From Bispira polyomma (Eukaryota): DNA of 64,000 nucleotides. Shown piece after piece: positions 24,189 to 59,760 of this stretch. Every line of letters starts with the position of its first letter. Positions within the stretch are counted from its first letter, which is position 1. The notes under the pieces are model-generated. The model saw nothing but the letters and a program-made list of their open reading frames with translations. It did no database searches and was not told the origin of the DNA. Position numbers and translations under genes: made by a program. The DNA is taken from contig OZ287759.1 in the NCBI GenBank assembly GCA_965649765.1, positions 43,710,001-43,774,000 of the forward strand, in the 5' to 3' direction.

Positions 24189-27100
24189 AGTTGCCGTGTG
24201 AACTACATGACTGGCATGAGTTGAGATTCACAGTCCCAGGATCCAGAGCATGAAGTTAAGATATAAGTTGACATTCCAAATTTCTTAAGATATTTGAAAG
24301 TTTCCACCAGTAAACACTGGCAAAAGTTAAAATTGGAGACCTTGTTTTATATGTAATATGGGAAGGACAAAGAAGACTCGCAGTAGTGCACCTCAAGCAA
24401 CAAAGAAACCCGCAACCACCAGGAGAGCAGCTTCTGCAAAAATCAAAGATCAAGTGGTAAAAAATTTGAGGGAAGCCGAGACAGAGGTATCCAAAAGGGG
24501 ATCTGACGGATTTTCTGGGGTAATGGCAATATTACAATGTCTCGAGTCGGCCAACGCTGATAATAACAAAAGACTAGACAAAGTAGAACTAAAAGGGACA
24601 GCTAATTCAACCCCTTTGACGTCCCCTGTAGTACCAGCCAGTAATGACACCATGTTAGATTTATGTCTTCACACAACGTTGTCATTACCTCAGAATCTAC
24701 ATCTACTTCAGACTGACCAGCAGTTTGGACACTTAGCCTTGTAACTGGCCACCAACATCATGACTACCAACGGGACGGCATTATTCCCAGGTGAGATGTC
24801 TTGAAATCCATCCCGGACGTTAACGCTGCTGTAAACCAAAGACTGGCTGCGTATGACAGTCAACTACGGTAAGAATTATCCTAAATTAAGACATCCTTAT
24901 GCCAAAAATCTGGCCGTTACAACACCACAGAAGTATGTGGTGTGGAACCTCAATAGCGCTAGGATGATAAGGGATGGATAGGAAGAACAGCCCAGAAGAA
25001 GCCAAACTTTGACGATCTTATTATGCCCTAGTGGGCAGCTGGGCAACTCGCCAACGTCGCCCAGGTCTTTAAACCTAATCTGATGAGGCAAATGCTACAC
25101 CAGATGATCTACTCGCTTAGGGATGCAGACACACTACCATGGATGACAGTGAGGGTAAAAACATGCAGCAAGTCGAAGAGGGGCAACTCGACTGGGCGAA
25201 CTTAACTCAATGGGCATTGAACCACCTTAGCACCTCTCAGCTGGCACTCGTTAAGCCTCAGACCACACACCAGGCTCAGAAGGCAAAAGTTTAGTGCAAA
25301 TTAGTACAAGATAATTGTCACCATCAAGTGGTATACTTAAATTTTCAAAAACATAAGAACTGGTCAGGCTTCTGCTATGTGACAAGAAGTACCACAAATC
25401 ATAGGTATCAGCATTTGGCAAATTTACCAGGTTTTCAGCTGGTGGTCACTACTAAAGAAAAGGTCATTATGTGTGTCCAAACATGTTATCATGTATATCA
25501 GTAAAAGATAGACAGTATGTGTAAACTAACAGGTAAGGTAAATATCAAAGAAGCACGGGGTGTCTAACTATAAACAAGCACAAATTCCTATTAAATCCCA
25601 ACTGAATATTGAAGCTTGGGAGGACATAACCCAAAATCACCCTGATAAAAAATATCACACAATATTTAAAGTTTGGTTTTCCACTGTCATTCAATGATTC
25701 CAAACAACATTTCCACTATTCACCCTTACTTACCAGGACCAAAGATATAAGTAAAAGACGAGTCATTCTTAACCTATCTTATCTGTTGGGTAATTCAGTT
25801 AATGACAACATTCGTCGGGGAATATATGATGACACGGAATTCTCACTAAAATTTCCCAGTATTGACAACATAACTGCAAGCATTCAAGACACTGAAAACC
25901 CACTTATGTTTAAGGTGGACGTGGCCTGCGCATTTAGGAACCTAAGAGTTAATCCAGCGGATGGCTTAAAGCTGGGCATCAAACATAACGACCAGTACTA
26001 CATTGACGCTACTGTTGCGTTTGGCCATGCCCATGGCATTGGGAGTTTTCAGCGCTGTTCGGATATCATAGCAGATCAGATAAAAACACTGGGCTACAAC
26101 CTGCATTGTTACATCGATGACTATGCTTGCACATGTCCAGGCTCTTAGGCAAAACAGCATTTTGACTATCTTTGTGAATTACTGAATTATGTAGGCCTCC
26201 CAATGAACCCTGATAAAGTATGTGCTCCTTCTACCAAGGTTACATTTTTGGGTATTGACGTTGACATCACTGAAGCAACAATCAGCATAACTAGAGAAAA
26301 TATTGCTGAAATATTTCAACATGTGTAGAACACAAAAATATCGTGGATATCTCGTACAAATTTTAATCTGTTTTAGGAAAATGACTTTACATTCACAAAT
26401 GTGTAAAACCGGCACTTGTTTTATTAACCGTCTTCTCTGAGTCTTTAGGGCTTCCCCTGGGGCTAAGCACTTCAAAATTACAAATAGTATTAAAAGTGAT
26501 TTAGATTGGTTTATCACTTTTCTTTTTAATTACAACGGGGTCACTTATATAAATCCCCTTCCAATTAAGGCAAACAAAGAAATGTATTTGGATGATGCCT
26601 CACAGGCTTGGGGGGAATTTGGAATAACCAGCTATATTACACACCCGTTTAAAACATATATGAATACGACCTGCATATTACACAATTAGGGATTGTCAAT
26701 ATAGTAGTAGCTTTGAAAGTTTGGGGAGAAAACTAGGCTCACCAAAAGGTGCCAGTCTGTTGTGACAACATGGCCGTGGTCTTGGTCGTCCAGACTGGCA
26801 AAACCAAGGGCCCATAGTTAGCCTCTTGTAACCGTAATATTTGGTTACTTACTTCAACACACGACATTACTTTAGAAATAGTACACATCAAGGGGATAAA
26901 AAACATACTGGCGGATGCTTTGTCCAGAATCTATTCGGACAAGCCTCCCAAACAAAGTATGATGCAGTTACTTAGTAAGAACATAAACTGGTTCCAATAA
27001 GTCACTTTAACTTGAATCTTAACATATAATTTCAGGTGCCACATCATCATCTGACACACTAAGACAGGCAGCTATTGACAGGATACACTCTGCCGTGAGA

Positions 27101-29147: not shown

Positions 29148-32100
29148 AAAACTGTCCAAGTTTGTTGAGATATTGGAAGGCCAGCTACAATATAAGTGAC
29201 CAAGCCCTTTATTAAACGCCAGCTGGACTTCAAGTGTCCAAGCCATTTAATTGAAGTATCAATAACCCATATGGATAAGGGATAAGGTATTACTTTTGTG
29301 TGTAGATGAACAAAATTATACAAACTATGTTGTATAGTTTGGGCCATTTATTAACTACTGTTTAACATGGAATACTACAATTAATAAGCAATTAGTAATT
29401 TTAATATTATTATTTATTAGTATGATTGCTTTTGTACATGTGTGTATTAACCACACACATATATATGGTTGATAAACACAAGTTACATATGTAGTGAATA
29501 AAAGGGGCTGACCCTGAGCCCAATTGTGTTGTGTAGAAGAGTTGGTAAGGAATGATCGACCTCAGTCTTGTGAGCTGCATTAGTGTTTTGTGGATATGTA
29601 TATATAGCATCGCTCGTCTAACTGCCATGGAGTTTTTCACTTCTCATAAACGCATGGAATGTGTAGTGTGGGGCTGTATGGTGTATAATAGTTGCCAAAG
29701 TTTGTATTGCTTTATATGCCAATACTGGTGTTTATTTTGTTGATCACTTCATTCAATCTACAAAAACTACTTCGATAAGAAGACTTTTTTTACAGACATA
29801 AGTGATTGGATAGATAAGTGATTGGATAGATATGTTTCACAACACTGTGTCCAAAGTTACTAAAATTTTAGAAATAGGAATACAGTGGTTTCAAGAAATA
29901 GCTAATACTAATACCACATTCTGGCGACTTGTTTTTTGTGCCTGGTGTCTGTAAACTGTTAAACCCTGTATTTTCCTCTTGCATCCACCTTTTTTCCAGT
30001 TAATTTGGAAATGAGTGCACAAGTTTAAAAGAAACCACAGGGATCGGCGGGAAAGGATGGGTAGACAGCTTGAGTGCTTGGCCAATGAGAATCCTTCTTG
30101 CATCCAAAGATACCCAACTTTGGGTACATGAACCAATAGGGTAGTTTGTAACTGTTTAGGGGGTGATCTGGGAGAAAACTCTGGATGCCTCATGGTAGGT
30201 TCTTTCTCTTTTGTGTGTGGATTTTGGAGAGACAGGACGTGTTGTCAATAATAGGTATGAGTTTTTACATATCTTCATATGTGTGCCGTATTAACGGTTG
30301 ACCCCTAGGATGTATAGGGTGTAGCAGGTACCGGGGGGTGACAATAAATAATAATATTCCAAATTTAAACCAAACTATATTTTATTTTAGCAAACACACA
30401 CATCTAACTTTGTACACAGAGAGCTTGACCAGAACTATTTCCAGAGCTTCATAATAACACAGAGTCCAATAGCTGTTTTTTCTTTTTATCTAAGAACTTA
30501 TCCCCTTATTATACACCATGCTCTGTTGCTGAACTGTTACTAATTACTCTCTCGTAAACTATTCTCCTTTCATCTGATTCCTCTGTCAGAGAATATCTTG
30601 TGCTTATATACTGTACTAATTAAATATTTGATTAGTTCATAATATTAACAATAAAACTTCATTTATTATGTTAAATACAATACATGATACACATTATATA
30701 CTGAATGACCAATACTATACACCATGTGAAAAAGAGATAATATATAGCAGTTCATAATATTAGGAGCAAGAAGCATATAATTAGTGTCTGTTCATAACTT
30801 AAGCAAGGACTGCTTCATACTATAAACAGACATATAGACATATATTATGATTAGAACCTATGTGTACATACATTTAGGGAACACTCAACACTATAGTAAT
30901 TTATGCCATTTCTTTGATAATGATATGAACAAGGAGATTTCCACTTAAGATGTCACTGGTCATTACAGCAATTCATATGTCTGGAGCTACTTATTATAGA
31001 AATGATATGGCTGGAGAGTATGCTAGGTAATTTGTACCGTGGAATATCTATGTTTAAGAGAAAACTTAACTACTAAATGATTTTGCTGATATTACTGTTT
31101 TGAAGTATTACATTTTAATTACATTTCTTTATTTTAGCCTACTTTTAAATTTCGTCAATTTCTCATTTGGCAGATATGTGAGTTGTTATCAGGTTTAATG
31201 GGGATAGGTGGGGGGGGGGGACTGTGGGATAGCAGGTAATCATCTCACCATTATTCTAAATTTATTATAATAAAATCATGTACACTAGTGGGCTGTAAAA
31301 TTATTACTTTGAACTTTGGTTTGTAGGGGAGGTATCCAGTTCTCAGGTGAAGGCCTTTATTTGTAATCTTGACCTCTATTGGCGATTTCAATTTTATTCT
31401 GGACATACATGTCTGAAAACTGTATTTGTAAATTCATTCATTATCATACTTCATATAAAATACTTTGGGGCTAGGATTGGTCTTCCTGTGCCGGTCAGTT
31501 TCCCTGTTCAGACCAGAGGAAGGACTTCTGTCTTAGGTAATAGGTATGAGTATCTGTAGTTAGCTCTTTTCTCTTGTGATGGTTTTCGTAACTGCACATA
31601 AGTGTAATACTTCAATATGATTTCCTTATTTAAATGCTTTGAATAATGTTCTTACTTGCATTTATATTTAATTGCATTTGCTAAATATACTCACCCTTAC
31701 ATGATTTATGTATGTGTGGGTTGTGTAAATCTATGTTTTTCTGTTTCAGTTCCCCGTGGTTGAGGGAAAGTTGGTTCTATAAGAAACCTAAGACTAAACT
31801 TGCCTTATTCAACACAGTAAAAGAATTGCGGATATAGTTTATTAGTATCTAGCATTGTTAAATCTACAGGTATTATATACAGTTGATGACTCTAAGGTAG
31901 GGGCATAAGGTCAACTTAAACTCAGCAGTACAACTGAGGTGAACATAAGGTCATCTTAAATTAAGAGAAAGGTAAGGTTGACTTAAGGTCACCTTAAAAA
32001 CAGAAATTTAGAGGGCCTAAAGGCGGCCCTAAATTTAGTTTAAGAATAGCAACCTGTATCTGCAAGGTAAGATGATTAAGGGCACCATTCAGTGATCCTA

Positions 32101-32394
32101 ACTTTACTTTTAGATTTTATTATAACATACCTTGAGTTTGAGTTAGTCTGGAAGTTGAGGGCACCAAATGGTAGCCCTAACTTGAGTTTACTGCTGATTT
32201 ACAGCGTACTATAAAGGTTGCAAATTGATTTGGAATAAGATGTGTAAGAGCACATAATGTAATGAGATATAAGTTGACCTTATGCCCCAGGACAGTGGGA
32301 ACTGTGAACTGTCCAGTATGCATTTGTTATACATTAACATTTATATATTTATTTGACAGGTGAGCCATAGATGCCAGACCACCAAACACCAGAG

Positions 32395-33383
32395 TTACCC
32401 AGAAGTAGGTTGGAGAGCAGATCTGAAGGAGTCAACAACCTGAAAACCAGTCTGTGCAGAATCTGTTATATACCTCCACACGCAGTCCGATGTCCAGGTG
32501 CCATGACGCTGGATGTCGTGGATGTTGACATTATTGTTAAACGCGAAAGTGGCACCTGAACGCCGGAAGGCATGAAAAGTGAGATTTAGATGAGCACATC
32601 CCAGGAGTTGCAGAATGTTTTTCAGATGGCGCCGTACCCTGGTGTCAGTCAGGGGAATCCAAGAGCCACCTAGCCTGTATTGTAAAAGGGGAGCATTAGG
32701 GCCAGAGTGGGTGAGGGCTAAAGCATTCTTCAAAGCAGCAACTGGGCACAGATTAGAATTTCGCAGTACAGGAATATTTAATAATTTAATCTGATTATTC
32801 GTCTGCATGGTCTTTGACCATTTAATCAATAAGGTAATGTAGCCAGGTTTAAAAAGCACATCCCCTCTGGCCAAGTGCTTGAGGGGAGAAAAAGTCGCCA
32901 CAGAGTGGGGACACAAATTTGACAGCCTCAGAAAACTAAAAAAGCTGTTTAGGTAAACGGCCTTAAAAATTTGGCCCATATAAGTGCTATCACACTTAGC
33001 CACTAGGGCAGTTAACAAGGGGATATCAAATATAGCCTTTAACTTTGCTTGCAGGGGTCTATTGACAGCAAGAGCCTTACTAAAGTGGCCTATACGGGGA
33101 TCTAAAAAACAGTCCACATCTATATGAAAGAGAATGCACTTAGCCTTAACGACCGAGAGGTGATTAGCGATTTGAGAAGCTGACATGTGATTAAAGCTTA
33201 AAAATTCTAGAAAAGATAGAATACCAAACACATTCACCTGATCAACTGGCCATTGCATGAAGATCCCAAAGGCTAAAAACAGCTTAAACATACTGTCTTA
33301 GGCTCTAGCTGTAGACTCCGCGAAGGCAAAGTGCTGTTTTTTACAGGCTCAGCTTCTAAGTAAAGCATCCAATGGGTGAATGT
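32395..33383 (-). pseudogene. tyrosine recombinase of element 2
   Basis: Catalytic R (FLRLSN), K (WSKT), HxxR (HAFRRSG), H/W (RHGTW) and Y (VWRY) are present; two in-frame stops lie in the 92 nt upstream of the ATG at 33291. Confidence 0.9.
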
Positions 33384-33418
33384 CTGAAACATAAGGTACT
33401 GTATAGACAAATCAAGGG

Positions 33419-35639
33419 TTATATTGTCTGGTCAATTTCCAGTAAAGTGACATCAGTCTCCAGCCAATTAACTGGGCCAGCCCATTGAGCCAGTAAGTAC
33501 TCATTATTAGAAGTTTTGTTCCAACGGTAGAGAAGGTCTGCAATTATGTTCTTTTTACCTAGTATATGGACCACTCTGATATCTATATCAAATTTACTAG
33601 CCCACATAAAGATATTTCGACTATAGGCAGCAAGCAAAGGATCTTGGGTGCGTCCTGTTTCTAGAATACTCACTACAGCTTGATTATCACATTTAAAAAG
33701 GATTCTACTCCCCTTCCAGACCCTGGACCATAGTTTCAATGCTACTAGTATGTTAATCATTTCCAGGGAGGCAATATTATCAGTGGTCATAGACTCGGGT
33801 ACTTGTAAGTTATAAACTTCGTTCCGACAGATCCCCCCATGCCAGTTAAGCAACAATCTAACTCAACTTGTGCATAGATGGCCTTATGTGCAAAAAAGGA
33901 AACCCCATTAAACTGTTGCATAAAGGTTCTGAACCAGTTCAGATCACGCCTAAATTCCTCAGTTACACAAAATCTGATCTTGCTTTGGTTATCCCTAAGT
34001 AACTGCAGCATTCGATTGAGAAATACTCTGGCATATCTTATGCACTTGGCCACATATAATAAAGACCCTAACAGGGATTGGAGTTCTTTCTTTGTACAAT
34101 ATTTTTTATTCTTCCAAGTAGCACATTTTTCCCTAATTTCGCTCATTTTCTCAGCCGGAATGGAAGTAGTGAAATTCTCAGTATTTATAAGTATACCTAG
34201 ACATACAAACCTGAGTACTAGGGGGCACGAGCTTTGTCTGACTTACTGTCAGCCCTAGCTCCCTCAGAAGAGCCTGCAACCTGATATAGGTTATTGTATT
34301 TATTGGAAGCGATACAGTCAAAAAATTATCTACGTAGTTGTGGACTTTGTGTCCTTCTGCCTTCATGATAAATCTGACTGTGTCTGACAAACGCTGAAAT
34401 ATAGTACTTCCATTTTGATACCCAAAGGGGAGACACTTATCGATGTAATATTGCTTCCATTTCAGACCTAGTAGATTGATGTCCCTGGGATTGATCGGCA
34501 CGTGCCTAAAGGCCCTACTCACGTCGACTTTAAATATGTGGCAACCTTTACCCAAGCTGGTGACCTCCTTAGTGAGGTCATCAATAGACAGATAGGACAA
34601 TATAAATTCTGTTTCGAGATAGGAAATTTGAGATGCACCTCCATTTACTGAGTGGCCCTGTGACCAACTCAGATCCACTATAACTCTCCTGTTAACAGAA
34701 CTGGATTTCTCTCGTGTCATCATAGGTGAGCAACGTAATTGTTTAAGAGGGGGTTCTTTAAAAGGGCCTAATATCGCCCCAAATTTACACTCTTCCTCAA
34801 GATAAGCTTCTATATGCTCTGGAAAACTATCAGCAGAACTATGATTGGGATTTTCGGTTTGACTAATTTCGTTTCTACACACATCCAAAGGGAAGCCATA
34901 TTTTACCAGCAATGGCAATTGCCAGTCCCAGTAGTCAGTAAAATAGTCTTTCCATTTGTCAGCATTTAATTGGGATTTTACCGCCAGTTGTAAGCCCTTA
35001 TAGTTATGTCTCCCATCCCCCCGCAGTTTAGAATGCATTTCAAAGACATCGAGACCATGATTTTTTGAGCCATTATCCAGAATTTTGCATCCCAGAGTTG
35101 TGAGAGGGGTAAACCCATAACTTACATTGTTCTGCTCTTTCCATTTTTGATGAGTTTCATTAGACAAGGCCTTGGCCAGCAAATCTCGTTTATTACGTTT
35201 CTGCTTGAGCTCTAACGCAGGAGGCAACTAAATCACCCAAATTTGTTTCCTTATGGGTCTTTATGCAAGGAACCTTGCCTTTACATTTGCCATTGACACC
35301 ACTGATTTTGTTAGCTATTGGTTGTTGAGGACCCTTATAGGCTTCCATACTTGCACTTCCACTACCCTTGACCTCCTCATTGCTGCCCAAGGCAACATTG
35401 GTTTGGCTGAGGGGGTGAAATCTATTATGCCACGCAGAAGTGCGACACGTGTTAATTTTGTTCGAATTTACAATGGTAACCCTTTGGTCCAACTCACAGC
35501 TGTTGCTTTTATGTCGCGTGGAAGGAACAAAGGGGAACTTATTGACACTATTTACACTCGGTTTTTTGTGAATGCGTGGGAGGACCTGCCTGTGCACTTT
35601 CTTTACACAGGTCCGAATTTCCCCCACACGTTCACTCAC
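33419..35639 (-). pseudogene. RT-RNaseH of element 2 (frameshifted)
   Basis: KVDVSRAFRHVP, CLPFG, YVDNF, LLGSLLYVAKC, CDNQAVV, ADLLYR spread over consecutive ORFs. Confidence 0.9.
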
Positions 35640-35868
35640 CTTGTCCTAATCACATGTATTTACAGTTTTTCCATCACCATATTTGCTTTTATTTACCTTT
35701 TTCAACGCTTTGCTGTAAGAATAACGCGGCCGTGTACCTTTACTGTGTGCAAGCATTTTAGCTGTCGCAGCTTTATCCAACAAGTGAAAATCACTGAATT
35801 TTGACTTATAAAAAGTTCGTGAATAGACATTAATTTCTTGATTTACACTGCCAAACTGCAGTGGCTAC

Positions 35869-36856
35869 TCAGTTTTTTAAATTTTTCTTGCTACAGGTGT
35901 TGGTCTTGTGTGTTCTCCCACAGGCTTCACACACGTGTTTAAAATAGGTATTGCCTGTTTTGTGGCTGTTGGGGAATTTGCATGAGCCATCTTGGTAAAA
36001 TTTACAGTTGGCAGTTGATGGCTTACCTTGGGCATTACTCTTGTTTGAACCACGACTGACAGTGACCGAGCTGTTGCTAACAATATGTCGCAGGGCATGC
36101 GCTCTGCGAAATCTGTCCAACTTATCAACGTCCGACCAGTTAAGCTTGTCCATCTCCATATGAGTAAGGACAACGGCATGACATGCTTTTGCAGCTTCCC
36201 AAGAGAAGTCCTCCGCGTCCTCCATCAAATTTGCCATTTAATCAAGCATTATCTCACGGGTTTCATTCGATTTTTCTTCATGAATTATACGGGTAAACCC
36301 ACACACCCACTGGTTTAAAGATAGGTCATCGTATGTGAGTCTGGACTTAAAGTTGCCTGTCAAAACATGATTTTACAGCCACTCGACAACGCGTTTGACT
36401 AGCACATCAACGCCCCCCCCCCCCTTTGAGATTTCAATTTACCTGGATTCGTATTTTCATTTAACTGTTTAAGCTCAGCTAATCTTACTTCTACTTGATT
36501 CTGAATCTGGGTGTTTTTCCGTAGAAAATCAATCCCTGGAATTATATTATCAGAGGGCAACGTTTCGGCACTGACATTGTTCACAGAACTACTAGCGATG
36601 CCAGGATTTACAATGTTATTGGACACACTAGAATTTGAAATACTACCTCCTGGTTTTTGTCTGCTGCCAAAGCCGCTTCTGTCTGTTGGACTCGTTGATC
36701 CATCCGCTCCATCATTTTTGCCATAGATTGTAATTGCAACAATATTTGATTAGACACTACGTTAGATTCCAAACCTGTGGTCATTGATGGAGCATTTGGA
36801 ACAATTAAAAACTGCCGGCATTGTAAAATACAATGAATAAAATCAACTAAAAACAC
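35869..36856 (-). pseudogene. gag-like ORF of element 2
   Basis: ORFs 36608..36856, 36399..36626, 35869..36237; EDAEDFSWEAAKACHAVVL and a C-terminal zinc finger. Confidence 0.8.
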
Positions 36857-38660
36857 TAAAACCAGTCAAAAAATCAGACATAAACATCGAATTTCCAAGA
36901 TGTCTGTCTAAAAGTTGCTTGTACTGTGAACGCTATTGTTATAATGGCGGGCAATTTGAAGACGGTCACTTTATATACTACTCGCAATCAATGAAGCGTG
37001 GAGAGGAAGACTGGTACCCCAAGAACTGAGATCGCCAGCGCTGGGGCACTGCCTTACAAATTATTTCAATGTTTCTTTCAAAGATTCTATAAAATTAGTG
37101 TTTCCAAATTTGTGTTTCTGTTTTAATTATTCTTTCAATTATTCCATTAATTAGGGTTTTAAATGTGTAACCATTCTCCTGTTGTCACCTAAGATATCAT
37201 GATATTTCCCCTTTCCAAATTCTAAATGTTTTAATATCTACCCTTTCTTTAAAATTATATTGTTTTCTGCATACACCATTGTGTGTAATTATTTTAATTC
37301 CATTATTTTAATTTGGTTCCATGTTATGTTTTGGTCTGTGTTTATTTTTATGTTGGCCGCGGCCACCAGTGGGCGTTCACATTAAAATTAATATGTCATG
37401 ATACCTCTTGTGTCAACTTGTATTTCATTTACAATTAATTATGCATCCATTTTACATACATTTTGCCATGTTACACCCAACTGGGTATCCCATTTCATCA
37501 ATAAAACTGTATTAAACTTTATTATTATGATTATTACCTCTTGTGTTTCACTTAACATGTGTTTTATGTATTATTGATTTAAAACAATTCTTTAGTGTGA
37601 CCTTGATTGACCTTTAATTTAGTTTAAGGTTCACTTTAAGTTAAAATCCCTTTTTGATAGTTGTCTTTTTATGCGGCAACTTAGATAAGATCTCAGTGCC
37701 TCAGCTGCAAAAGTCTCATCTTGGCCATGGTGTTTCTACTCTACAGTTTATCTCGACAGGTGTAAAGAACAGGAGATGTTCAGGTGTCACGCTACCACGT
37801 TTACTTGAACATACAAACTAGTATACTGATTTAGTATAATTTAAGCAGTACCTAGGTTGGGGATGTAAGATAGTACAACTTAGATTTGGACTTGGTTGGT
37901 GGGATTCCCAGGTGGTTGGGGACAGTTTGTTGGTCTGGAACCACAGAGGAAATAGCCGACAATAAGGTTGCAATGAGTTTGGTCATCCCCGAGTACTAAA
38001 AAATACTGAAATCAGGTGATAAGGGCAGACATATATAATGGTTGTTTGAGCCATAAATTAACCTGGTGGCAGCTACTTGACTATAAAGTCTCATACTTTA
38101 TTGTTTTGGCCTAAGAAGGTATCCCTGTTCCGCCACATATAAGTCATATTCAGGCTGAGCATACGTTAGAGAATACCGGCCCAGGATAATTAAACCCTTT
38201 GCAAAGAGACTACTGACTGTGCCTGAGAGAATATACAACTAACTACAGGCTGTCCAGAGCAAGGATGATTGTGGTAAATGCATTTTTCATACTGGCCAGC
38301 CATTTTACCTGTCTCTTAACCACAAGACAACAGCTGCCTGATGTGATGAATGACTTGGTGATGCCTTGTTGTTGCCTGCACAACATTATGCGTCTGCTTT
38401 ACCCCCAAGCACATCAAAGACTAGCCGATGATGAAAACCAGGATCATAGATTGGTCAGCGGAAGGTGGACAAATGCTGCAAACATGGCAGACATGGATGA
38501 ACCACAACACGGCAACTGACTGACTGTGGCAGCAAAAAGGTAAAGACTTTATTCAAAGCATTACTACAGCAGCCCAGCAGGTTCTGTGCCATGGCAAGAC
38601 AAGATGATCTAGAAGCTCCTACCACAGGGTTGTAAGACCCAGGCAGTAATGGCAAAAACA

Positions 38661-40118: not shown

Positions 40119-42750
40119 TCACCATATAATGAAGCAATATATATGTATATATGCTTTCCCAAAATGTGCATTTAAAAAAATGTTTTGACAACTAAAGATG
40201 AGGAATGCCCTATTTATATGCTGTGTGTCCCGTTATTGGGGGGGGGGGGGCTTTGAAAGACATGGGGGAGGAAAGTGGTGGCTCAGGATGCCATGTCCTG
40301 TCACCGGAATGGCGTTGGAAGACATAGGGTAGAAAAATATGAATCTGGATGGAAACCTATTGTCACTGGATTACTCGGAGTACAAATGTATTACCAATGG
40401 ATTACCAACGGATTGCTTGTGACGGAAAAGGATTAGCACAGGATGGCTTCCAACATTAACAAAGCACCAATGGCACAGCTTCCTATTGTGATTGGAGTGT
40501 GACTGTTTAGTGAAAGGGGGAAACCGGAGCACAAAGGCTTACAATCGGTTAAACAACAGGCCGCTTGTGACTGGCTGTATTGTTTATCAAAATTTTATTT
40601 CATAATATTGCTGGTATTTCCAATTATGTAAAGTAAAAAAATATGTATGCATTCCATTGCCCTGACATCTAACTACATTTTGTCCCCAAACAATTCCCTG
40701 ATATATTTGGATTTTAATTTTTTAAAAACCTCATACTTGGGCCATGTGGTGCAAGAGGTGAAGTTTGTAATTGTTCTCTGGATATATTTAATTAATTTTT
40801 TAAAGAAAAAAACACACCAATGACATGTGCGTGACAAAATAAATGGAGAAAAAAGTTACAAATAGACATGCAAAGTTGTATTCAAATATATATTTGGAGT
40901 AATATATGGGCCCCAGTTTGTTCTGGATAGGCTCTGTACCTCTAAAAGCAAGCCGAGGCCGACACCATGCAACTGCAATGAGGAGACAAGCAGCTCTGTT
41001 GTGAGCTGTTTGGTGAGTAAAACACACTATCTTGATTACTGATCCGGAAATGACTTACATATTTTCATGAACAGCACACCCTTTTGATCGCTTCCTGAAG
41101 CGATTTTGAGTGATCTTTCATGACACGTTGTCACACAGACAGAGAAAATAGACCTCCGTTACATAACGACTGGACAAAGCGGGAACGCGAAAGGAACAGT
41201 GTGAAAGCCCCATAGAAACCTATCCTATTTGATTGCTAAAGTATTATTCATTAATATATGTTGCGTGTAAATAAGATCAATGTTCTCAGATTATCATAAA
41301 TATGTTGAAACAACAACACAATAATTCTTTGTTGTACATTTTCTATAAAAAAAGCATAGTTTCAGTTGTAGATAATTAGTAAAATGCAACTATGCTTACA
41401 TTAAACATCTGTATTATCATTATGTATATTCTAAACTTTTGATAAAAGTATGTTTGTAAATTACAAAAGAGCTGTAAAATACACATATATTAACTAGAAG
41501 TGCACTGAATAAACCACATACCTCCGCTATGGTGTAAATGCCAAAACGTGAAAAAATAATGGTTCCCCCATTTTGTACAGATAAGTTAAAAAATTTGATA
41601 TATTCTTCCATGGCTTTTACCCCATCCACTAGCAAACTATATGGTTCTTACATATCTGGATGAGCTCATATGCTTTGGTGATTGTAATATTCACAGACTA
41701 TTACAAACTCCTTCCACTCCAGCCAGTCAAATTCCACATAAGATCACTTCAAAAATCGAACTGGTCTGTGATTTAGATACAGACCCAGACGTATCAAAAA
41801 GTAGATAAATAAATTATTTGACGAATTTTCTTGTAGTAGGTATAAGGTAAAATAGTCATTAATGTACACAGTGATACTTGGCTTTATCCAGTGACATGCA
41901 CTTCAATTTCATGGTTCCTTCAATTAAAATCATTTCTGCCAAAATACCAAAATGCAAAACATATGCTGTTATATCAACTCGATACATATTTAATAGAGTC
42001 ACTGTCATAACCAAAACATTCATAACATTGTACAGAAACTTTCAATCAAATGCCTTTTCAAAATTAATCAGCATCAAGTGACTAGGCCAAGCATACCTTT
42101 AAGTTGTGTCTTAAGTAGCAAGTCATAGTTTGGTCTTGTATTTTCATTTATCAATCTGGACAATTTAAAAAAAAAATTTGATATGAAGCAGGCTCAATGC
42201 AAAGAAACAGGTAATCTGGTATGGTATGTCAAACTACCATAGCAATGCAAAGTGAAACTGATTTGCTCCCCTGAACAACTATTTGGAAACTATTGGAAAC
42301 TTGGATTTATCTGCATAATACTTTTGCAAAGCATAAGCATTATGCTGCATCTAACTTCTCTTGTTTAGATTATCACAAGGCATGTTTTTATTTATGTGGC
42401 TTGATTTTTGCCACAGCCAGAAGTACATCGAAACACACACCCTTCTTCACAATAAATATCGAAATATTTGTTGTCGTTTTACATATGCAATATCACACTC
42501 CCCAAACAATAAATTTACTGTATGCGGTACAATGCTTGCCAGACAACGTTGATTTATTATTGCCTGATCGGTCGCCCAACCAGATTTTCAGGATTCTTGC
42601 AGGTATTACAAATATATGTGTGAATAATGACACCAAAGTAAAATTTGAATCAGGCTCAGAGACATTCTTGGAGAGGGATAATTTAGTAAAAAGTAATCTA
42701 TCTTTCAGAGAATCCAAAGAAGAAATGGTGATGTGTTATGAATACTTAGT

Positions 42751-43099
42751 GTTTGGCTTAAAACTCACCTAACGTTCTGATGTGCTATGTTGCGAGGCAA
42801 AATAAAGGGCTACTAATAAAACAAAAGATTAAAACTGACAATGAGTTGCCATTTTGGTGGAGTGCGTTGCATTTTTCATTTTTGTGTTGTCAGTTGAGTT
42901 ACAAAAGAAAGTTACATGGGCTTTTTTTCGCAACGCAACGCATGTTTCTAATATGAAACACAGGGTAGTCTGGAAATACATCAATAACGCAATGCTAACG
43001 CAGATAAAAATGCATTAATTAGTTTTCTAAAACTGCAAATGCAAGCAAAATTGCTAATGCAAATGCAAGCACAAATGCTAGGTGAGTTTTGGACCAAAC
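42751..43099. mobile_element. MITE ~350 bp
   Basis: TIRs GTTTGGCTTAAAACTCACCTA / TAGGTGAGTTTTGGACCAAAC; internal AACGCA/AATGCA repeats. Confidence 0.7.
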
Positions 43100-45748
43100 C
43101 AGTCAGTGTGCGATGTAACTGTGGTCGCGCTCAACTGCCGTGACTAACTCTTCGGTCCATCTATGAACTTGTAAAATTTAGATGCCCAACTTGCAAGTAA
43201 CTTTTTAAGGTTAATTTCTGATTAGTTGCGACATTTTACTCTCATATTTGATACATATTTCTTCATTTTCTAAGAGTTTTGCAAGGTCATTGTTGTTTAC
43301 CTTCTTTGTGAATCAATCTAAGAAGCATTTTCATTGGCTAAATACTGGGCTGTTGCTAAAATTCGTGGGCAATTCAAAATTCTCATATAAAATAGTAGAA
43401 TGACTTTGAATATATGAAGTGCCAAAGTTATTTCGCATTGATAAAAAATAATATTATATACTATGAATTTAACATTCATTCCCAAAGTAACACAATTTGT
43501 CTGTTGAATTTTGAGTGGTTGTCATTCGGAACTACTTGCATATTTAAAAGTATATAGGGTCAATCATGCTTACTATTTTGATTAGTAATACTGTGGGTGG
43601 GTAAAACTCGGAACTCCATTGTGAACTCCCTGGGAGAGCAAAATCGGCTAAATTGTGGCAGAAAATGTCTAGAAGTCGAATATGTGGCTATAAACTCACC
43701 TAGAAGTCTGGGAGGTGGCTGTAAAGTTGTATAGAAGTCTGGAAGGTGGCTGTAAAATTGCCTAAAAGTCTGGCAGATGACTATAAAATGGCCCGGGGTT
43801 CTGGTAAGTAGGTGCAACATTACTTAGGGGTCTGGAAACTGGCTGCTGTAAACTTGCCAATAGGTCTGCGAAGTGGCTGCAAAATTACCCGGAAGTTTGG
43901 GAAGTGGATGTTGATTTCCTAGAGGTGTGATAGGTTACTATAAAATTGCCTTGGTGTCTTGGAAGTGGCTGTAAAATTGCCACGGTTCTGGGAGTGGTTG
44001 TAACATTACTTAGGGATAAGTAAAGAGGCTGTAAAATTTCAGGATGTACACATCTATTTTAGCTCACAATGTCACTGTATATGTCTGTCTGCAAGCTTAT
44101 ATCTAGGTCTCATATAGACAAACCAGCAAAAAGAAGACACCACAAACATTTTTGTATCTATCAGTGAGTTTATGTTTCAACTTTGTTTCAGATTTGTCTA
44201 CATTCGAAGCACTTCGTTCATAACCCTGAGTATCCATAAGCATCAGTGGAGCTGCTGGGTACATTTTAGGATGTTTAAAACATTTGTGGCAGAAAGCTTG
44301 TTTGTGACGATTTTTGTGGGAGACGGGGCAGTTGCGCATACATCTTGATTAGTTTTAATTAGTTTTGGAACATTACTTATCAGTAGCAGGTTGTGTTAGC
44401 TTGTTGTACATTTGTGTCAAGACGTAGCAGTAAGTAACCATTCGTTTGTATTAGCGACGTATCAGTGGGTATTCCTTGGTATTTGTGATGTCTTTGTTTC
44501 TTATTGGTGGGGATTGGTGTCAGTGGGTGTTAGTGGTCGTGTCAGTTATGTGGTACAGGTTCATTTCAGATTATCCCAAAAGCACCACATCTTTGTGATG
44601 GTGGGATTGGGGAGGGTTTGAGGAGGTCTATTCGTGGATGAAAGTCCCCGAACCAGGATTTGTTAGATGCTACAAATACTGATGAATAAACATCTGTGTG
44701 AGATCAGGTCTTTGCTTACAAGTGCCGAATTTGTTCATATTTAGAAGAACTACCCGTGTTTATGAATTCATACAATGTCCAGACATTTATTGAGAAACCA
44801 TCAAATATACTATTACCAAAGCACTTCATCAAAAGTAGTTCAAATTAAACCTCAAAGAGTTAACCTCTACGTTTAACTGTTATATTGTGTTGACTTTACC
44901 ACAATTACATATTACAAATCTGTACATATGTATGACTTATGATGATTATGTGTATTGGTGGTGAAAATTTGGACCTGGCGATAAATAAAAAAAGGGGAGT
45001 AGCATTGATATAAAGCAACAGAGATATTCAAATATAATACCCCTGTTCCACTTAACCAATCATAGCTCCCAACCATCTCGATCTGATGATCTGGAGCTAC
45101 TCAGGGGTACAATTGGGAGTTGCTTCCGACTTATTTTTGGCTATCAGCAGCAATCGGGCCACTTGCTCAGGTTTTTAAACGTATTTGAAAACCTGTGCGA
45201 TAGGGTGACACACAATACCAATCAGGAGCAATTGGGAGCAATCGACTTATCGTTATGCCCAATGTTTTCAACGACCTATCTTTACAATCATCCCCGCCCA
45301 GGACCCAAATTGTGAGCAATTTTACAGAAAACCATTCTGAGTGATCGCGCCATCCCAATGATAGATTGGGAAGTCATCAACTTATCAGCCGTTGGTCCTG
45401 ACTTATCTTGTCATATGCTAAGAATAACTTGTTGGACTGTAAAGTTAACTTAGGCATGGTTTCCAATAGCATTGTAAAGATAACTCTTGAACACAACAAC
45501 TCAGGCCTGACAATGATAACTTGCGAGTGCATTTTTTTTGCTCACGAGTCAAATCGGAGGACCACAAACATATAAAAGGATACCATGACAGTAATCTTCA
45601 TCTCATTTAATTTTTAGCACCGAAGAGTACACATCAGAAAGTGGCAATTTTCATTGAATATATATTATAAGTTTAGGTCCTTGCTTTTTTGTTGTGAGTT
45701 ATAAGTTTAAAAGTTTTATATTGTACATTGTATATTTTTTGATTAAAT

Positions 45749-47120
45749 ATGCCACCCAAGAAGAGAGGATGGAAGAGGAAGATGGTGACTTATTATGAGG
45801 AGGAGGCTAGGGAGTTTAATGTTAACATACCTGAAGATGCTCTGACTGTGGTACCGGAGACCCAGTTATCTCAGTTTACAGCCCTGCAAGACACAGCAGA
45901 AACCCAGGATACAGAGGGACACGATTTAACTTGTGACGCCGAGGTGGCGGTCTTTTCCAGAAAGCAGATGAAGGAGCAGATGCAGACAGTGCTACTGACC
46001 GACAAACTGGAGGAGGCTGTCATCGACTTCCTCAAGGACAATGAGGGGCTATACAACACACACTGCACTGATTACAAGGACAACCAGAAAAAAAGAGTTC
46101 TGCGGGGTAAGGGGGCTTGATACTGGGGACATCAAGAAGTGGTTTCAGTCCCAGAGCACCATCTACGGGAAGATGAGTGTGCCAAAATCAGGTGAAGTCC
46201 CCCCCCCCCGGAGTTGACAGACAGATAAAGCCGGGTGAAGGACAACTTCAAGTTCCTGCTGACTCACATCATCCGCCAAGTGAACAGGACGGAGGGGTTC
46301 AAGTCCATCTCATCTGCCTTTGCTTCTGCTGGTCGTGGGTCGCAGACACCAACAGGGTCCCAGTCTGACACAGACCAGGCTAAACTGGAGGTGGAGGAGT
46401 CCTTACCGTTGTTGGCACCAGCTAGACTTTTCCAACAGTCATCTACCTATGGAGGGCAGTCCACTCCGACCCACTGTAATGCAATGACAGCCGACTTTAA
46501 GGATAGCATGTCCACGATGGAAGATAGGATAGCCGGCTTCCTGAAGGATGCCGTCAAACCAAATTCTGAGAAACCAAGAGCTACCTTCATGAACTGGCTC
46601 TCCTTAGAGACTGATAAACTGTTGGAAACTTTGTTCAACACTTTCAGAAAAGAGCAACTTACAGGAACAGTCTCAACAGGGGGTTGGACTCACACACCTC
46701 TAGCAAAGACCACAACAGTATCCACAATTTCAACCACAGCCAAGTACCACCTATGATATGGGGTCACCTACTTTTGTCCCACAGCAGCAACAGCAAGAAC
46801 AGCTGTAAATGTACCACATACAGCAATAACAACTCAGACCACAGATGTCACAACCTCCAAACCATTCACCCATCAAGACAGTTCAACAGTCACCAACACC
46901 AAGTGGAAGTGTAGCTAGTATATCTGATATCATGGGGACTATTCTGGCAATAGACAATCCCGGATCAGCTCAACAGTCTCATCAATGGTCAGACATATGG
47001 GCATAGGCCCAGGGGATATAAGCTACCAGAGCATTGACACAACTTCACATTATGAGCATCAGATAACAGACACAACCACCACAGCCCCCTCCTTAGCCCA
47101 AACCTCTGTTGAACCTGGTA
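45749..47120 (+). pseudogene. Harbinger MADF/Myb-SANT-like accessory protein
   Basis: MPPKKRGWKRK (NLS-like); EEAVIDFLKDNEGLYN...DYKD...IKKWFQSQST; Q/S/T-rich tail; TATAAAA at ~45571. Confidence 0.75.
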
Positions 47121-47142
47121 GACCAGGAGAGTGTACACGTCA

Positions 47143-47163
47143 AAACCTTTTCAGGGCCACCCT
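47143..47163 (+). promoter_or_regulatory. decayed histone-type stem-loop after MADF-like gene
   Basis: AAACCT-TTTC-AGGGCC-ACCCT; loop, 3' arm and ACCC are canonical, 5' arm damaged. Confidence 0.6.
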
Positions 47164-47620
47164 AATGTTTTAAAAATATTATCCAAGCTGTTTGTAAATT
47201 TAAAAAAAAACCTCACTACAAGAAGCATACTAGCCCAAAAAAAAACTTATCATACGTAAACACATAACAAAAACAATACTTGGCCCCTCCCCATAGAAAT
47301 AAAAATACACTGTTAAATTTTCAACTTGTGAAAGCCTTTAAAATATAACTCTGTTAACAACATTGTATGTATATAGGGGCAGGTAGTTTTTGACATAAGT
47401 CTATTTGATGGGGACAACAACTAAAAAAAGTTGTATTTAAGTATTTAAAATATTTCTACTGGGAGAGGCTATTATTTATCAGAGTTGTATTTGAAGGGGT
47501 TTTAATTCTGTTTTTATTTGTGTGTGCGTGAGGTAATTTATTTTGTGGGGCCAGTTCGCTTTTTATAGTGAGGTTTTATTTTCATTTAACAAACAGCTCA
47601 GATAATGTTTTTGGAACATT

Positions 47621-47641
47621 ATGGTGGCCCTGAAGAGGGCC
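47621..47641 (-). promoter_or_regulatory. histone-mRNA-type 3' stem-loop after Harbinger transposase
   Basis: AACCAATC-GGCCCT-CTTC-AGGGCC-ACCAT on minus, 25 nt after the inferred stop TGA (47669-47667). Confidence 0.88.
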
Positions 47642-47666
47642 GATTGGTTCTTCTTGCAGCTCAGCT

Positions 47667-48900: not shown

Positions 48901-49209
48901 ATCTCTATTACACTTTGTAGAACCATCTTGACAATTAAGATTTCAGATAAGCAACCTATATATAGGGTTGATACTTGACAATCTTGGACATTTCGAGGTT
49001 CCCACCAACGTTAATTACCAGGATCTGTTGGAGTAATCGAGCAGCCTCCCTGAGTCATCGTGAACCACTATGAGTGGATCGGGCAGCCTCCCCGAGTTAT
49101 CTTTACTATCGTAAGCAGTACTATCGACTTATCGCCCCGGATGGAGATGGTTGGGATGGCCATTCCTGCATCGGGAAGTCAAATTGGGCCGATTGTTAAG
49201 AACGGAACC

Positions 49210-49466
49210 GGGGCCGCGGTGGCCCAGTGGTTAGCAAGCATTGCGCTTCACAATCACTGGTCTCTCACCTCTGGGTGGCGCGAGTTTGAATCCCGTCGAT
49301 GCCTATGTGGGAAAGGTGGTAGTTCCTCACTGTGGGTCGTTGGTTTCTCTGCAGAACCTTGACCGACTGTATGCAGTGTTTCCTCCAGCGTTTCCAACTA
49401 CCCGTCCCAATATAACCTACTAAAAGGTACTAGAGTGGACGTTAAATATCTAAATTCAAATTCAAA
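49210..49466 (+). mobile_element. full-length tRNA-derived SINE with 14-bp TSD
   Basis: A box TGGCCCAGTGG, B box GAGTTTGAATCC, (AATTCA)n tail; TTAAGAACGGAACC duplicated at 49196-49209 and 49467-49480. Confidence 0.95.
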
Positions 49467-55029: not shown

Positions 55030-58000
55030 AGCTATAAAAGCCCATGTTTTTGGCTTTCCAGTATCAAAAAGCATTGGTTATGAGAAATGCTATTGAATTG
55101 GATTGCAATTTATGCTTGTTTTGGCTTCAGTCTACTGGTTTGGGGACGTGCTTTCTTTATTTCCCGCACTTTTTGTGCAAAATATTCACAGCGATTACTC
55201 TGTTTTATTATTTTATCACACTGATTTAATCACATTTTTATTAACACACGTACCTAGCAATTACACGTAAACTGCAAATCGTTCAGTTTGTCGTTTCAGA
55301 GAATAAAAACATTTATGAGACTGTTATAGGTTTGAAGTTAGATTAAAACCGGAGTGATGGCTAACAGGACTGCTTTTTGTAAAAGATGTTATATTGTAGT
55401 TCATCGACCAGTCGAGCGTGACTGCCACTTGAATCTGACTGTGATGAGTGCACCCGACACCAGTGGTAGCAGAAAGAGGACCCAGGCTAAGGCAGACAAC
55501 GAACGAGGAAGGGCCAGTAGTGCGGCGGTGCAGACGGCAAGTGGGAGGCCTAAGATGATGATGGCGGGACCTAGCCAGGCTGAACCGGATCCTAACAAAC
55601 TGAACATTATCCTCAGTAAATTGCAATGGCTCGAGGAGGATATATGTTAGGTAAAACAGGACCAACAGCAGCAAAAGCTGGACTCTTTGTCAAAAGCTGC
55701 TTTTCCGGTGCATAGTTCGCCTGTACACTTGGGGTATGTCAAGGACCCTGAGGATGAATTAGATTTAGCCCCCGTGCATAGGTGGCTGCGTGATTCACAT
55801 TATGGCAATGACTTTCACCTGCAGGATATTTATGATCATGCGGATGACATTCTCCCAAGTCAGAAGCACCTCAGAACGAATGAGGAGATTCAAGCCCAAG
55901 TGGATAAGCAGCTCTAGAGGCACAGATGTCAATACCTTGAATTGCCACAACATGGTAAGACAAAACTCAAGTCTGGCTTGCACAAAACATCTGAGAACTG
56001 AGTAAAACACATTGTCAATTGGCCCCATAAACTTTATTATTTAAATTCCACTAAAAAACAGACCTTTTATGACGAACTCACTTCCATAATTGTGGGGGCG
56101 AAGCAATGTTGCTGTTGCAGTACAGCCTTTTGAGCGTGTTGGGGAAAGTTGTCCCCCCCCCCCCCCTTTGTTGACTTAAATGTAATCCAGGGCAGAACCC
56201 AGTCTTACCCATTGTGTGGAGATGTGTCCAGCGACGTGTGTTTGGATGAAAAGGTCAAGGTTGACAATGTTCAAAGCTTTGTGTGTGGGGGACAAAAGTG
56301 TCCCCCTTGTGTCAATTTAAATGTATTTCAGGGCAATCCCCTTGTTCACACCCCCGAGGTGTTGCCTGTCCACTCTCCCGAGAAAACATTAATTCGTGGC
56401 GTACCCCTTTGTAAGGCGTCAGCCTGTAATACAAAAACCAAAGAATTGCCTAAGAGCAATTGTGACAAATTAGGACTGGGTAAAACGTCTGGTGACAACT
56501 ATGGCTTCATGTTTGTGTTTAATTAGTTGTTGAGTGTCAGGGGGAACAGGAGCCATGTCAAATATGACTCACATGAGGAGTGAGCCGTGAAAGCTCATAA
56601 AAAGGTCACTGCTTTTGGATGTCACAATTATTTGGGTGTTAATAGATGAATACTTGGAGTTTGGTTACCCCCTTGATAGTTTTGTTTATAATAATGATGT
56701 CAAAGACCGTGATAGTGCCCCCCAGTACCCTGGTAGCATAAATGAGTACTTTATCATGGAGCGCCTGCACAAGGCTATTGCTGGTCCTTTTGAGACAACT
56801 CTATTCAAACATATACATTGTTCCCCTGTTATGACCCGTCCTAGGACGATAATAGCTTGTGTACAATTGTAGACTTGTCATGGCCTTATGATGCCTCTTC
56901 AGTTAACAGTGCAGTGAAGGACGGAGTTTATGATGGTCTTGAGTTTGCCATTACCACCTATACCATTGATATGCTAGTGGATAGGATAAATCACATTGGA
57001 CCTACTGCAAAACTTTATAAATTCAATCTTTTCCGCGCATTTCGAAATATCCAGATAGATCCTTTATGTTATGAAGATGCAGGTTTAAAGTAGAAAGGAA
57101 ACCCCTAAGTTGATATGGCTCTCATGACGGGCTATAAGCATGATGCGGCTATATGTAAGCGTATGATTGATAGTATATGTCGGTAAATTGAACAGAAAGC
57201 CTTTAAGATTTGAAATTATATAGACAACCTTGTCGGAAGAGTCTTGTGGAAAAGGCTAGGTCTTCATTCCAACATTTGTATAGACTAATTGAATTTCTAG
57301 GATTGCCAATTAACCCCCAAAAGGTCTGTGAGCCCGCCGACAGCATGCATTGGAATAATGGTGAATGCCAGTATTGGCACTCTTACAATACCTAGTGAAA
57401 AATTAGAATCAATACAAATTAAATGTCAACAATGGCGGAAAAAAGCCAGTGTACCCGTAAGAAGCTCCAGTCTTTGGTTTGAAAGTTGTTGTACATCCAT
57501 AGGTGTGTTAACCCTGCCCGTTTGTTTAAATAGGATGTTGAGACTGCTGAAGGACACATTCCTACAAAAGACCAGTGATTTCAAGGCTGACCTTAATTAG
57601 TTTGACGCCTTTTTGTATGATTTCAATGGTAGTTGAGATGCACTTGACAGGTGGTTATGTGCACGTAGTGTTTGTGGACGCCTCACTTGAGGGGATTGGG
57701 GCAAAGTGGGGTAAGAACATTTATGCTGCCTGGAATGTGTGGCTTTATGTATGTCGGGTTATACATTATTATATACAACTGTGTTAGTGTGGTGTGACAA
57801 CAAATTAGTTGTGTAGCCTCCCTTAACTCTAGGCGCTTCCGAGACCGGGGCCTAGCAACTATTTGGTTAGAAACTGCCAGGTTTAATATCAAATAAAAGC
57901 TAACACACACCCTGAGAGTTAAGAATGTCTACGCTGATCATTTGTCATGCATGTTTATCACTGGATATAAAAATTAACAGGTTTAACAGCAGCTGAGTAA

Positions 58001-59760
58001 CAAAAACTGGTGTGAAACATTACGACCTAAATAGTGAATTGTGATTTTTATTTCAGATCACCCTCTACAAAATTCCTTACCAAAGCAGCCAATTATAGAT
58101 TACAACCTGCTTTCAAGGGAAAAACAAATTAGGTCTACAGCAAGTGTGTCAGGCTTTTCATGACATTCTCAATATTTATTGCCAATTCTAGTGTCACATC
58201 TCTGCAATTCATACTCCAATTCATGGAGTATCTAGGCCAACAGGGTTTAAAACCCCCACTATTCACAATTACTTGTCTGCAATCCAGCATCAGTTACAAC
58301 TGTGGGATTATGACACCACTGTCTTTGCAAATCTTCAAATTAGGTTGTTTTTAAATCACTTACATTGTCTACTCCTTACACCCCACAGTTAAAAGGTATT
58401 ATCACCCTTCCCATACTCAGGGGTATTGTCCATAGCTGTAAACAATTGCATCATGCATGTGTGTACAAGGCATTATTCTTGACTGCCTTCTTTGACAGAC
58501 ACTTAACATGTGAAGATTTTAAATGGGGTGCTCCTTGGGTCCATGTAGTAATACGCTGTACGCTGGGCTAAAAACCTTCAAAGTACAACCAATACCATTT
58601 CGTTCAGATTTGTGCATTGCAGAATTCAATGTTGTGTCTAGTTTCAGCTCTACGTATTATATTTGACATAAACAGGAGCCCCCCTAACTCCCCTGTGTTT
58701 GTGTGCAGAATGGGCAGTCAACTCGCCCCCCTGATGGCTTATGAAGTTAGGCGTACTTTCAGGGAAAAAATGATTGAATTAACATAACATAACATAAACA
58801 TAACATATTGCATTTGATATTGCACATTTTTACAATTCTGTTTCAAATGCGCATTTACATGGAAGTCTACTTGTAATACTTGTCAAAGAGATATTTCTTA
58901 ACTTTTTTCCTGAACAGTTTTAGATTGTCACAGTCCTTGATGTTGCAGGGTAACTCATTCCATAATGATGGCCCGCTGACACTGAATGATCTTGATGCAA
59001 AAGTGTGTCGGCTTGTTTTAGGTACGAGAAGATTGTTTGAGAAAGTCGAGGATCTGAGTCGTTCTCTGAACACTGGTTTTTGAGACAGCAGGTTTTGCAA
59101 ATATTCTGGAGCATTTCCTTGCAGGCAATTGTACACAAGCACCATAATTTTGAATTCAATCCTGGCAGCAATTGGTAGCCAGTGAAGTAGCTTTCTGGAT
59201 TCAGTCGAGCTTTTATATTTTGTCCTATTAAGTACTAATTTGGCAGCTATATTTTGAACTCTTTGCAATTTCTTGATTTTTGTGGTAAACCAAACAGTAT
59301 ACTATTGCAAAAATCGAGATGTGACATTACTAAGCCTAGAACTACTGTGTGTGTTGCTTCCGTTGTAAGGGTGGATCTGATGTTTCTAATTCGGTGAATG
59401 TTTAGCATAGCTACTTTGCATTTATGGGTAATGTGTTGTTTGAAGTTGAGGTAGTTATTCAAATAGACTCCTAGATACTTAATGTCAGCACTTGAATTAC
59501 CATCTTCACCATTCACTTAGCACTCAATCTAAGTTGTTGCTAGCCTTCGATAATAGCGTTGAACTCCAGTTCACCATGGCCCATGGGGGATGGTGCTCCT
59601 CGGCAGTGTGGGCCTATCTCCAGTCAACCCCCAATGCATTTGCTGTGTGGCTAGATTCCTGCAACAAATTGTTACAAGCTAACTACCAGTATGGCGTTTG
59701 GGCATTTTTAGTAGTATACATTACATATATATTTATTACATATACTTTAACCAATCTTAG
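55030..59760 (+). mobile_element. heavily decayed tyrosine-recombinase retrotransposon 4
   Basis: TATAAAA at 55033; gag 55444-56090; RT IVDLSWP, FRAFRNIQIDP, YIDNL; RNaseH VDASLEGIGAKWG; YR 58057-58781 resumes at 59500 (AHGGWCSSAVWAY). Confidence 0.88.
58782..59491 (-). mobile_element. 5'-truncated L2-type LINE inserted in the YR of element 4
   Basis: LHWLPIAARIEFK, SRSFSVSGPSLWNELP; (TTATG)n tail; TTGAATTA duplicated at 58774-58781 and 59492-59499. Confidence 0.92.

Follow-up and report, generated by a model that had tools for sequence, protein, structure and literature searches.

How a retrotransposon with a tyrosine recombinase (YR) expresses that enzyme is the question raised by this locus, and for YR retrotransposons the answer has so far only been guessed at, in the form of a frameshift. 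The window, the whole 64,000-nt stretch of Bispira polyomma DNA that was analysed (contig OZ287759.1, positions 43,710,001 to 43,774,000), holds four YR retroelement remnants. From one of these, element 2, the first-pass annotation had proposed a spliced fusion of the N-terminal half of Gag (Gag-N) to the YR, with the reverse transcriptase and RNase H (RT/RNase H) inside the intron. This core proposal gains strong support from comparative sequence analysis, in which the signals are conserved across diverged families, and the splice that we infer from them is likely the route by which the YR is made.

Element 2 (31747..37058, minus strand, as are all of its features below) is a decayed Ngaro-like copy with the order A1-gag-pol-YR-B and without A2 and B2. 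Its 5' split direct repeat A1 (36906..37058) matches the A2 repeat of the fuller copies L010, L012 and L017, and its 3' repeat B (approximately 31747..32380) is duplicated downstream in L009, L012 and L017. Proposed coding exon 1 (36443..36821), which is broken in this copy, encodes the Gag N-half with a CxxCx3H..C motif, a coiled coil and a short helix, and it ends at a phase-1 donor, CAG/GTAAAT (36437..36445), at the gag Gly of GKLKS; in the longer context ...AATCCAG/GTAAAT, the GT lies at 36442, 379 nt past the gag ATG at 36821. The proposed 3059-nt intron (33384..36442) would remove the gag C-half and the whole of pol. Within it lie the signal for a Gag-Pol -1 frameshift (35845..35878), whose sequence is conserved across families and consists of A_AAA_AAC (35878-35872), the gag stop (35871-35869) and a hairpin, and pol itself (33419..35868), a broken frame for a linker, RT (PF00078) and RNase H (PF13456) that lacks a methyltransferase (MT) domain and ends about 35-40 aa past RNase H. 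The candidate acceptor, ...TTTCAG/ (33384..33400, AG at 33385-33384), reads ...CCTTATGTTTCAG/ and is preceded, at a distance of 15 nt, by another AG in the same frame. Proposed exon 2 (32395..33383) would encode the complete YR, from an N-terminal helix through the R-K-H-R-H-Y catalytic motifs, and the YR ATG at 33291 lies 92 nt into it.

The donor, the acceptor, their common phase, the length of the removed stretch and the ATG had all been read from the sequence correctly in the first-pass annotation; the acceptor does lie shortly 3' of the pol stop (33421-33419), but the gap to the exon is 35 nt rather than 34. Stops interrupt the frame of the gag ATG at 36764 and 36752 and that of exon 2 at 33351 and 33300; with both proposed exons broken, this copy cannot itself make the fusion. 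The same phase had also been claimed for the acceptor in elements 1 and 4 and for the donor in element 4, and these sites are present: element 1 has TTTCAG/G in phase 1 (27030..27036, plus strand; exon from 27036), 6 nt past the pol stop, and element 4 has ATG/GTAAGA at the gag Gly (55952..55960, plus strand; GT at 55955) and TTTCAG/A in phase 1 (58051..58057, plus strand; exon from 58057). The donor position of element 1 (~24886) and the acceptor of element 3 (~53446) are mutated. In the family of element 2, which has about 28 copies with the exon-2 start kept, the GT is retained in 26/26 loci and the AG in 21/26 (two locus pairs overlap one copy), but at ~95% identity this retention cannot show selection, and the evidence is carried by the diverged families.

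Many copies, including element 2 (at window position 31747) and L002-L008, stop after a single B, unlike L009, L010, L012 and L017; such ends would be the expected product of recombination between B1 and B2. Elsewhere in the window, a decayed LINE-like element with an APE endonuclease (PF03372) and an RT (PF00078) lies at 9563-12360 (minus strand), and an inverted relative with 64-73% identity lies at 16383-17654 (plus strand). Fragments of another repeat occur twice, inverted, at 20652-24025 and 42670-52334 with 72-94% identity. An ORF at 61632-62093 (plus strand) resembles MADF weakly (E 4e-4, which falls short of the cut-off) and is possibly a Harbinger-type remnant.

A first look at the 1.03-Gb assembly yields 12,882 YR candidates, of which 131 were scored; 60 further loci together with the element 2 family fall into 19 clusters when grouped at 80% DNA identity, and a foreign set comprises 26 loci from metagenome assemblies with YR identities of 26-40%. 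No relatives were found among viral contigs. Complete copies contain gag (~340-360 aa), pol with RT and RNase H and without an MT, the YR, and repeats in the order A1...B1-A2...B2. The RT/RNase H (PF00078, PF13456/PF17917) is followed on the same strand by a tyrosine recombinase with YR motifs and a PF00589 match that is strong only in the relative L159 and weak in the window copy; L159 also gives a weak match to the SAM-like YR N-domain. In L151, L152 and L154 the split direct repeats are nearly perfect (A, 151 nt, 99-100%; B, 466 nt, 99.6%), with ~730 nt between A2 and B2 in this young family (L151:7016-7747), and the A1...B1-A2-B2 plan recurs in the copies L009, L010, L012 and L017 of the element 2 family. 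An MT family was found in none of the five complete pols, and the pols of L064 and L099 stop ~35 aa past the RNase H match.

These features bear on the "DIRS-like" label of the first-pass annotation, which in the DIRS1 sense has to be given up. DIRS1-like and PAT-like elements share the YR and the RT/RNase H with the present elements, but in both of them RNase H is followed by an MT, and the terminal repeats of DIRS1 are inverted and come with an ICR; here, the terminal repeats are direct and neither trait is seen. The split direct repeats and the Gag zinc finger (a weak CCCH match) are shared with PAT-like elements, but they are also common to the Ngaro-like structure and are not decisive. 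As defined in PMC4157794 and PMC3266345, Ngaro-like elements have gag, RT/RNase H without MT, a downstream YR and A1-[ORFs]-B1-A2-B2 repeats, and the elements are Ngaro-like by this structure, which in YR retrotransposons is homoplasious, as PMC4157794 warns. Some copies have further peculiarities: in L064:2209-3400 and its relatives, pol contains an open, poorly conserved region of 200-350 aa before the RT with no Pfam match, and in L070:2-2518 and L090:1033-4329, other elements (an 839-aa ORF and an endonuclease-like ORF pair) are inserted in the YR retrotransposon copies.

A comparison of diverged elements reveals that the best-scoring AG upstream of the YR lies in phase 1 in 36 of 40 (17/18 own-genome clusters and 19/22 loci of other hosts), compared with 110 of 316 control windows, although the counts across families are not independent because the families are related. 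The AG was selected by an automatic scorer from the stretch 30-120 nt ahead of a profile anchor within the YR N-terminus, in a set that left out the cluster of L143, three foreign loci without upstream DNA and one near-duplicate; the control windows lie inside the YR, were scored in the same way and divide between the phases as 112/110/94. In the element 2 family the scorer picked the in-frame AG 15 nt upstream, and the AG at 33385-33384 is the one at the position homologous to the other families. Protein similarity, judged by eye, starts at the AG. The pol frame very often ends in Ile-stop (ATATAA, ATTTAA or ATCTAA), 6-40 nt before the AG, and this motif may double as a branch point.

The donor is conserved as well. 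Its motif was found in 41/63 loci, with the GT kept in 39 of the 41, and the Gly codon at the GK motif, which was checked for free variation, is invariant (GGT in 38/38). A comparison of 14 gags, not all from different clusters, has 13 conserved Gly columns, and only at the donor Gly is GGT invariant; in pol Gly columns (n=21) GGT reaches at most 62%. A phase-1 G/GTAR occurs at the donor Gly in 11 of 13 gags (nine own clusters and four foreign), compared with 5/13 for the next-best gag site and 6/14 for the best site in pol; MAG/GTAA is found at the same place in all four complete gags of other hosts (4/4), and an element-1-type pattern, CAAG/GTAA, is found in 6/11 loci tested. The donor is located in a predicted interdomain linker of variable length, in which a Gly is followed by K, N, M, T or I (an A-starting codon) in 45/49 gag proteins against 247/858 in the background, a lenient count that accepts any Gly in the linker. 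These comparisons also address the explanation that AT-rich spacers and GGT glycines imitate splice sites by chance. In the analysed gags, Gly is encoded most often by GGT (115/287), a codon that readily creates a phase-1 G/GT and so makes donor look-alikes common: within 300 nt of the pol end, phase-1 donor-like sites are present in 18/29 elements, a single RNase H Gly accounting for 7-8 of these. The controls on phase, Gly columns, linker Gly and G/GTAR scans nevertheless speak against chance, which is extremely unlikely to account for the signals.

For Gag-Pol, the sequences point to a -1 frameshift or to UGA readthrough. In the own genome, A_AAA_AAC-stop closes 14/19 gags and is in most cases followed by a hairpin at a distance of 5-8 nt, and in intact copies of this type pol is open in -1; the same heptamer occurs in one foreign element. 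In the L145/L146 family and three foreign elements, pol lies in frame behind a UGA. Related families alternate between the -1 frameshift (window 35878-35845, minus strand) and the in-frame UGA (L159:1121, L160:1561, L168:1316 and L146).

For the Ngaro group, a -1 ribosomal frameshift from pol is the published model (Poulter and Butler 2015, as quoted in PMC13003380), and a Gag-Pol-YR protein made by such a frameshift or by readthrough at the pol end, with the AG incidental, is indeed suggested by a -1 pol/YR overlap in 8/29 elements, among them the element 2 family with its 10-nt overlap. In this set of 29 elements with a pol stop and an acceptor (picked by hand, four of them not the top-scoring AG), however, the frame of the YR relative to pol is -1 in 12, 0 in 11 and +1 in 6. 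Overlap of any kind occurs in only 11/29, and the gaps extend over 6-783 nt with stops. An in-frame slippery heptamer at pol-YR is found in 0/29, yet the gag-pol junction of the same elements has a clear slippery site. The variable frame, the few overlaps and the missing slippery site indicate that the published -1 frameshift, and with it the -1 overlap described as an Ngaro trait, cannot be general here. For fungal Ngaro elements, YRs in the same or a shifted frame have already been noted (PMC3783388). A conserved in-frame ATG or frameshift signal before the YR was looked for, and none is common to the 29 elements. For the non-overlapping families the frameshift route is already largely refuted, it would leave the phase-locked AG unexplained, and as a whole it is very unlikely; in contrast to that model, the elements combine a free frame relation with conserved splice signals.

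A real acceptor could also be paired mainly with a donor near the pol end, so that a short intron would produce a Pol-YR polyprotein. Annotated proteins with such a composition exist: among the 20 proteins obtained in a YR search restricted to 400-2000 aa, five (P0273, P0274, P0280, P0282 and P0284) have pol-derived sequence joined to the YR, and in P0273 from Mytilus edulis, which matches the locus L180, the predicted acceptor is used together with a phase-1 donor that lies 59 nt upstream of the pol stop. The join points differ between these annotated models, however, and only 4/29 elements have a phase-1 site resembling a donor 3' of the AD-x-L-S motif of RNase H. The commoner pol site (-140) would remove that motif, and no pol site exceeds the 6/14 given above, which makes this pairing improbable as the main one.

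The annotated proteins also include examples with the layout expected for the Gag-N-YR fusion. In six RefSeq models from scallop, amphioxus and coral, a non-pol N-terminal part leads straight into the start of the YR and motifs of the Gag C-half are missing, in a coiled-coil or Gag-N-like plus YR architecture (XP_033729484.1 from Pecten; XP_019616155.1, XP_066298120.1, XP_078616156.1 and XP_066278617.1 from Branchiostoma; XP_078360978.1 from Oculina). Three of them match Gag-N weakly (E 0.003-0.02), with hhalign probabilities of 0.2-14% for the three compared. In the cluster of XP_033729484.1, one junction is common to 8/8 members, and P0276 shows the predicted order of pre-donor helix, linker ending in Gly, and YR. 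Known here as annotated proteins, the RefSeq models are consistent with the splice and do not demonstrate it.

The YR might instead be translated from a nearby ATG or non-AUG codon, on an RNA with a non-coding 5' donor or from an internal promoter, with the gag GGT fixed for another reason. An ATG lies upstream in an open frame in 6/29 elements and within 12 codons past the AG in 6/29, but the other 18 of the 29 have no usable ATG in either position, and the first ATG of element 2 falls inside the conserved N-terminal helix. A non-coding first exon would also not keep the phase of the acceptor conserved. We consider this explanation quite unlikely.

For the spliced Gag-N-YR fusion, the following mechanism is proposed. 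A single promoter in repeat A1 would drive a full-length RNA, and all proteins would start at the gag ATG. Unspliced RNA would serve as the genome and as the template for Gag and for Gag-Pol, the latter made by the -1 frameshift at A_AAA_AAC and its hairpin or, in other families, by UGA readthrough. A fraction of the RNA would be spliced from the phase-1 donor in the gag linker to the phase-1 acceptor just past the pol stop, the gag donor at 36442 of element 2 pairing with the YR acceptor at 33384. The product, of ~480 aa, would combine the Gag N-half (zinc-binding-like motif, coiled coil and helix) with the entire YR. The clade looks like a one-donor/one-acceptor system because no conserved acceptor precedes the RT: a second one was looked for there and not found, the best positions reaching at most 4/15 in pol and 4/13 in gag. 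Splice efficiency would then set the dose of the YR, and the Gag N-terminus may target the enzyme to the particle, as the first-pass annotation had suggested.

The AlphaFold2 model of Gag (pLDDT 81, pTM 0.47) contains an N-terminal Cys/His motif, a helix at 50-91, helices at 122-147, the donor Gly152 in a linker, a helical bundle at 173-267 and a C-terminal Cys/His region. The proposed splice would retain the first Cys/His motif and the helices at 50-91 and 122-147 and lose the bundle and the C-terminal Cys/His region. The retained Gag N-half models as a trimeric coiled coil: the homotrimer reaches an ipSAE of 0.43, against 0.14 for the best control, and its contacts involve residues 53-89, with a pLDDT of 44-46 and agreement between runs in at least 35% of contacts. 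The mark applied to the trimer is passed by 21/30 homo-pairs of solved structure and by 0/23 monomers (17/29 and 0/30 for eukaryotes), although it is calibrated on two copies and a pass may come from model memory. RhxxhE, which is a trimer motif according to PMC5940361, is present in 38/49 gags. Through the shared coiled coil, Gag-N-YR may co-assemble with Gag and Gag-Pol on the RNP or cDNA of the element. A RhxxhE-type trimeric coiled coil also occurs in the structural protein ORF1p of LINE-1, a likeness offered as an analogy without a claim of homology. A fold search with Gag matched only generic helices (Z<=4.8) and barely covered the C-terminal domain, an ESM Atlas search returned only unnamed clusters, and a weak profile search with Gag-N returned only one full Gag.

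Copies of a spliced product were looked for in the genome. Spliced retrocopies are found at 0/28 exon-2 starts in the element 2 family and at 0/47 in the L093 family; the long YR frames of L183 and L184 were considered as retrocopies and rejected as decayed pol-YR runs. In DNA searches spanning the acceptor, the best 40 matches listed are all full-length, a listing that does not bear on retrocopies. Three sequencing runs of unrecorded kind (X1-X3) cover 30/30 bins in the manner of genomic DNA, and in these runs the proposed joint is absent from the 15 listed of 76 joints, which speaks neither for nor against the splice. No report of a spliced Gag-YR fusion was found in the YR retrotransposon literature covered, most subscription papers lying outside this scope. 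The abstract of the 2004 Ngaro paper of Goodwin and Poulter reportedly mentions spliceosomal introns in some YR elements.

One subgroup of the element 2 family (L014, L019, L020, L023, L026 and L030) shares a ~373-nt deletion that spans the gag end and the frameshift site (window 36138-35765), and in the subgroup, 5/5 of those covering the acceptor (33384) lack its G. The pattern suggests a non-autonomous lineage that had lost the frameshift site and the acceptor before it spread. The deletion of 373-375 nt was considered as a lost intron and rejected, having microhomology ends and no GT..AG; it is also seen in runs X1-X3.

The splicing strategy of retroviral env had been suggested as the model for the YR. 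The idea of a spliced-RNA strategy stands, but the closer analogue is a Gag-integrase (Gag-IN) fusion of murine leukemia virus (MLV). Retroviral env has its own start codon. In the MLV SD' RNA (P50/P60), as described in PMC10496198, a gag-internal donor is joined to a 3' acceptor, and an N-terminal part of Gag with integration-enzyme sequence is packaged in virions; the elements resemble it in the donor inside gag, the acceptor further 3' and the predicted fusion of the Gag N-part to the integration enzyme. MLV P50, however, is accessory and carries the last 116 aa of the DDE integrase, whereas the proposed YR splice would be the route to the entire recombinase. Conserved splicing that sets protein ratios is also described for the Ty1/Copia element EVD (PMC5580714), where the splice yields Gag alone, whereas that proposed for the YR elements would yield the integration enzyme.

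A broader reading, tentative and somewhat short of probable, is that animal Ngaro-like elements are built to produce their integration enzyme as a spliced Gag-N-YR chimera, in which the trimeric Gag coiled coil would load the YR into the RNP and the Gag N-terminus would help in target choice; the YR dose would be under host splicing control, and non-autonomous lineages would gain by losing the acceptor, as the subgroup with the gag deletion has. In Cafeteria, deletion of Ngaro ORF1 is described as coinciding with a changed target preference (PMC8547959), which would fit a role of Gag-N-YR in target choice. If true, this reading would explain mechanistically how ORF1 and the choice of insertion site come to be connected in Ngaro. 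A real splice would mean that annotations of this abundant animal group miss ~150 aa of the YR protein, and biochemistry and structures of the bare ORF would therefore concern a truncated enzyme. It would also offer a way to bring the recombinase to the cDNA and to select targets, and would turn host splicing into a control point.
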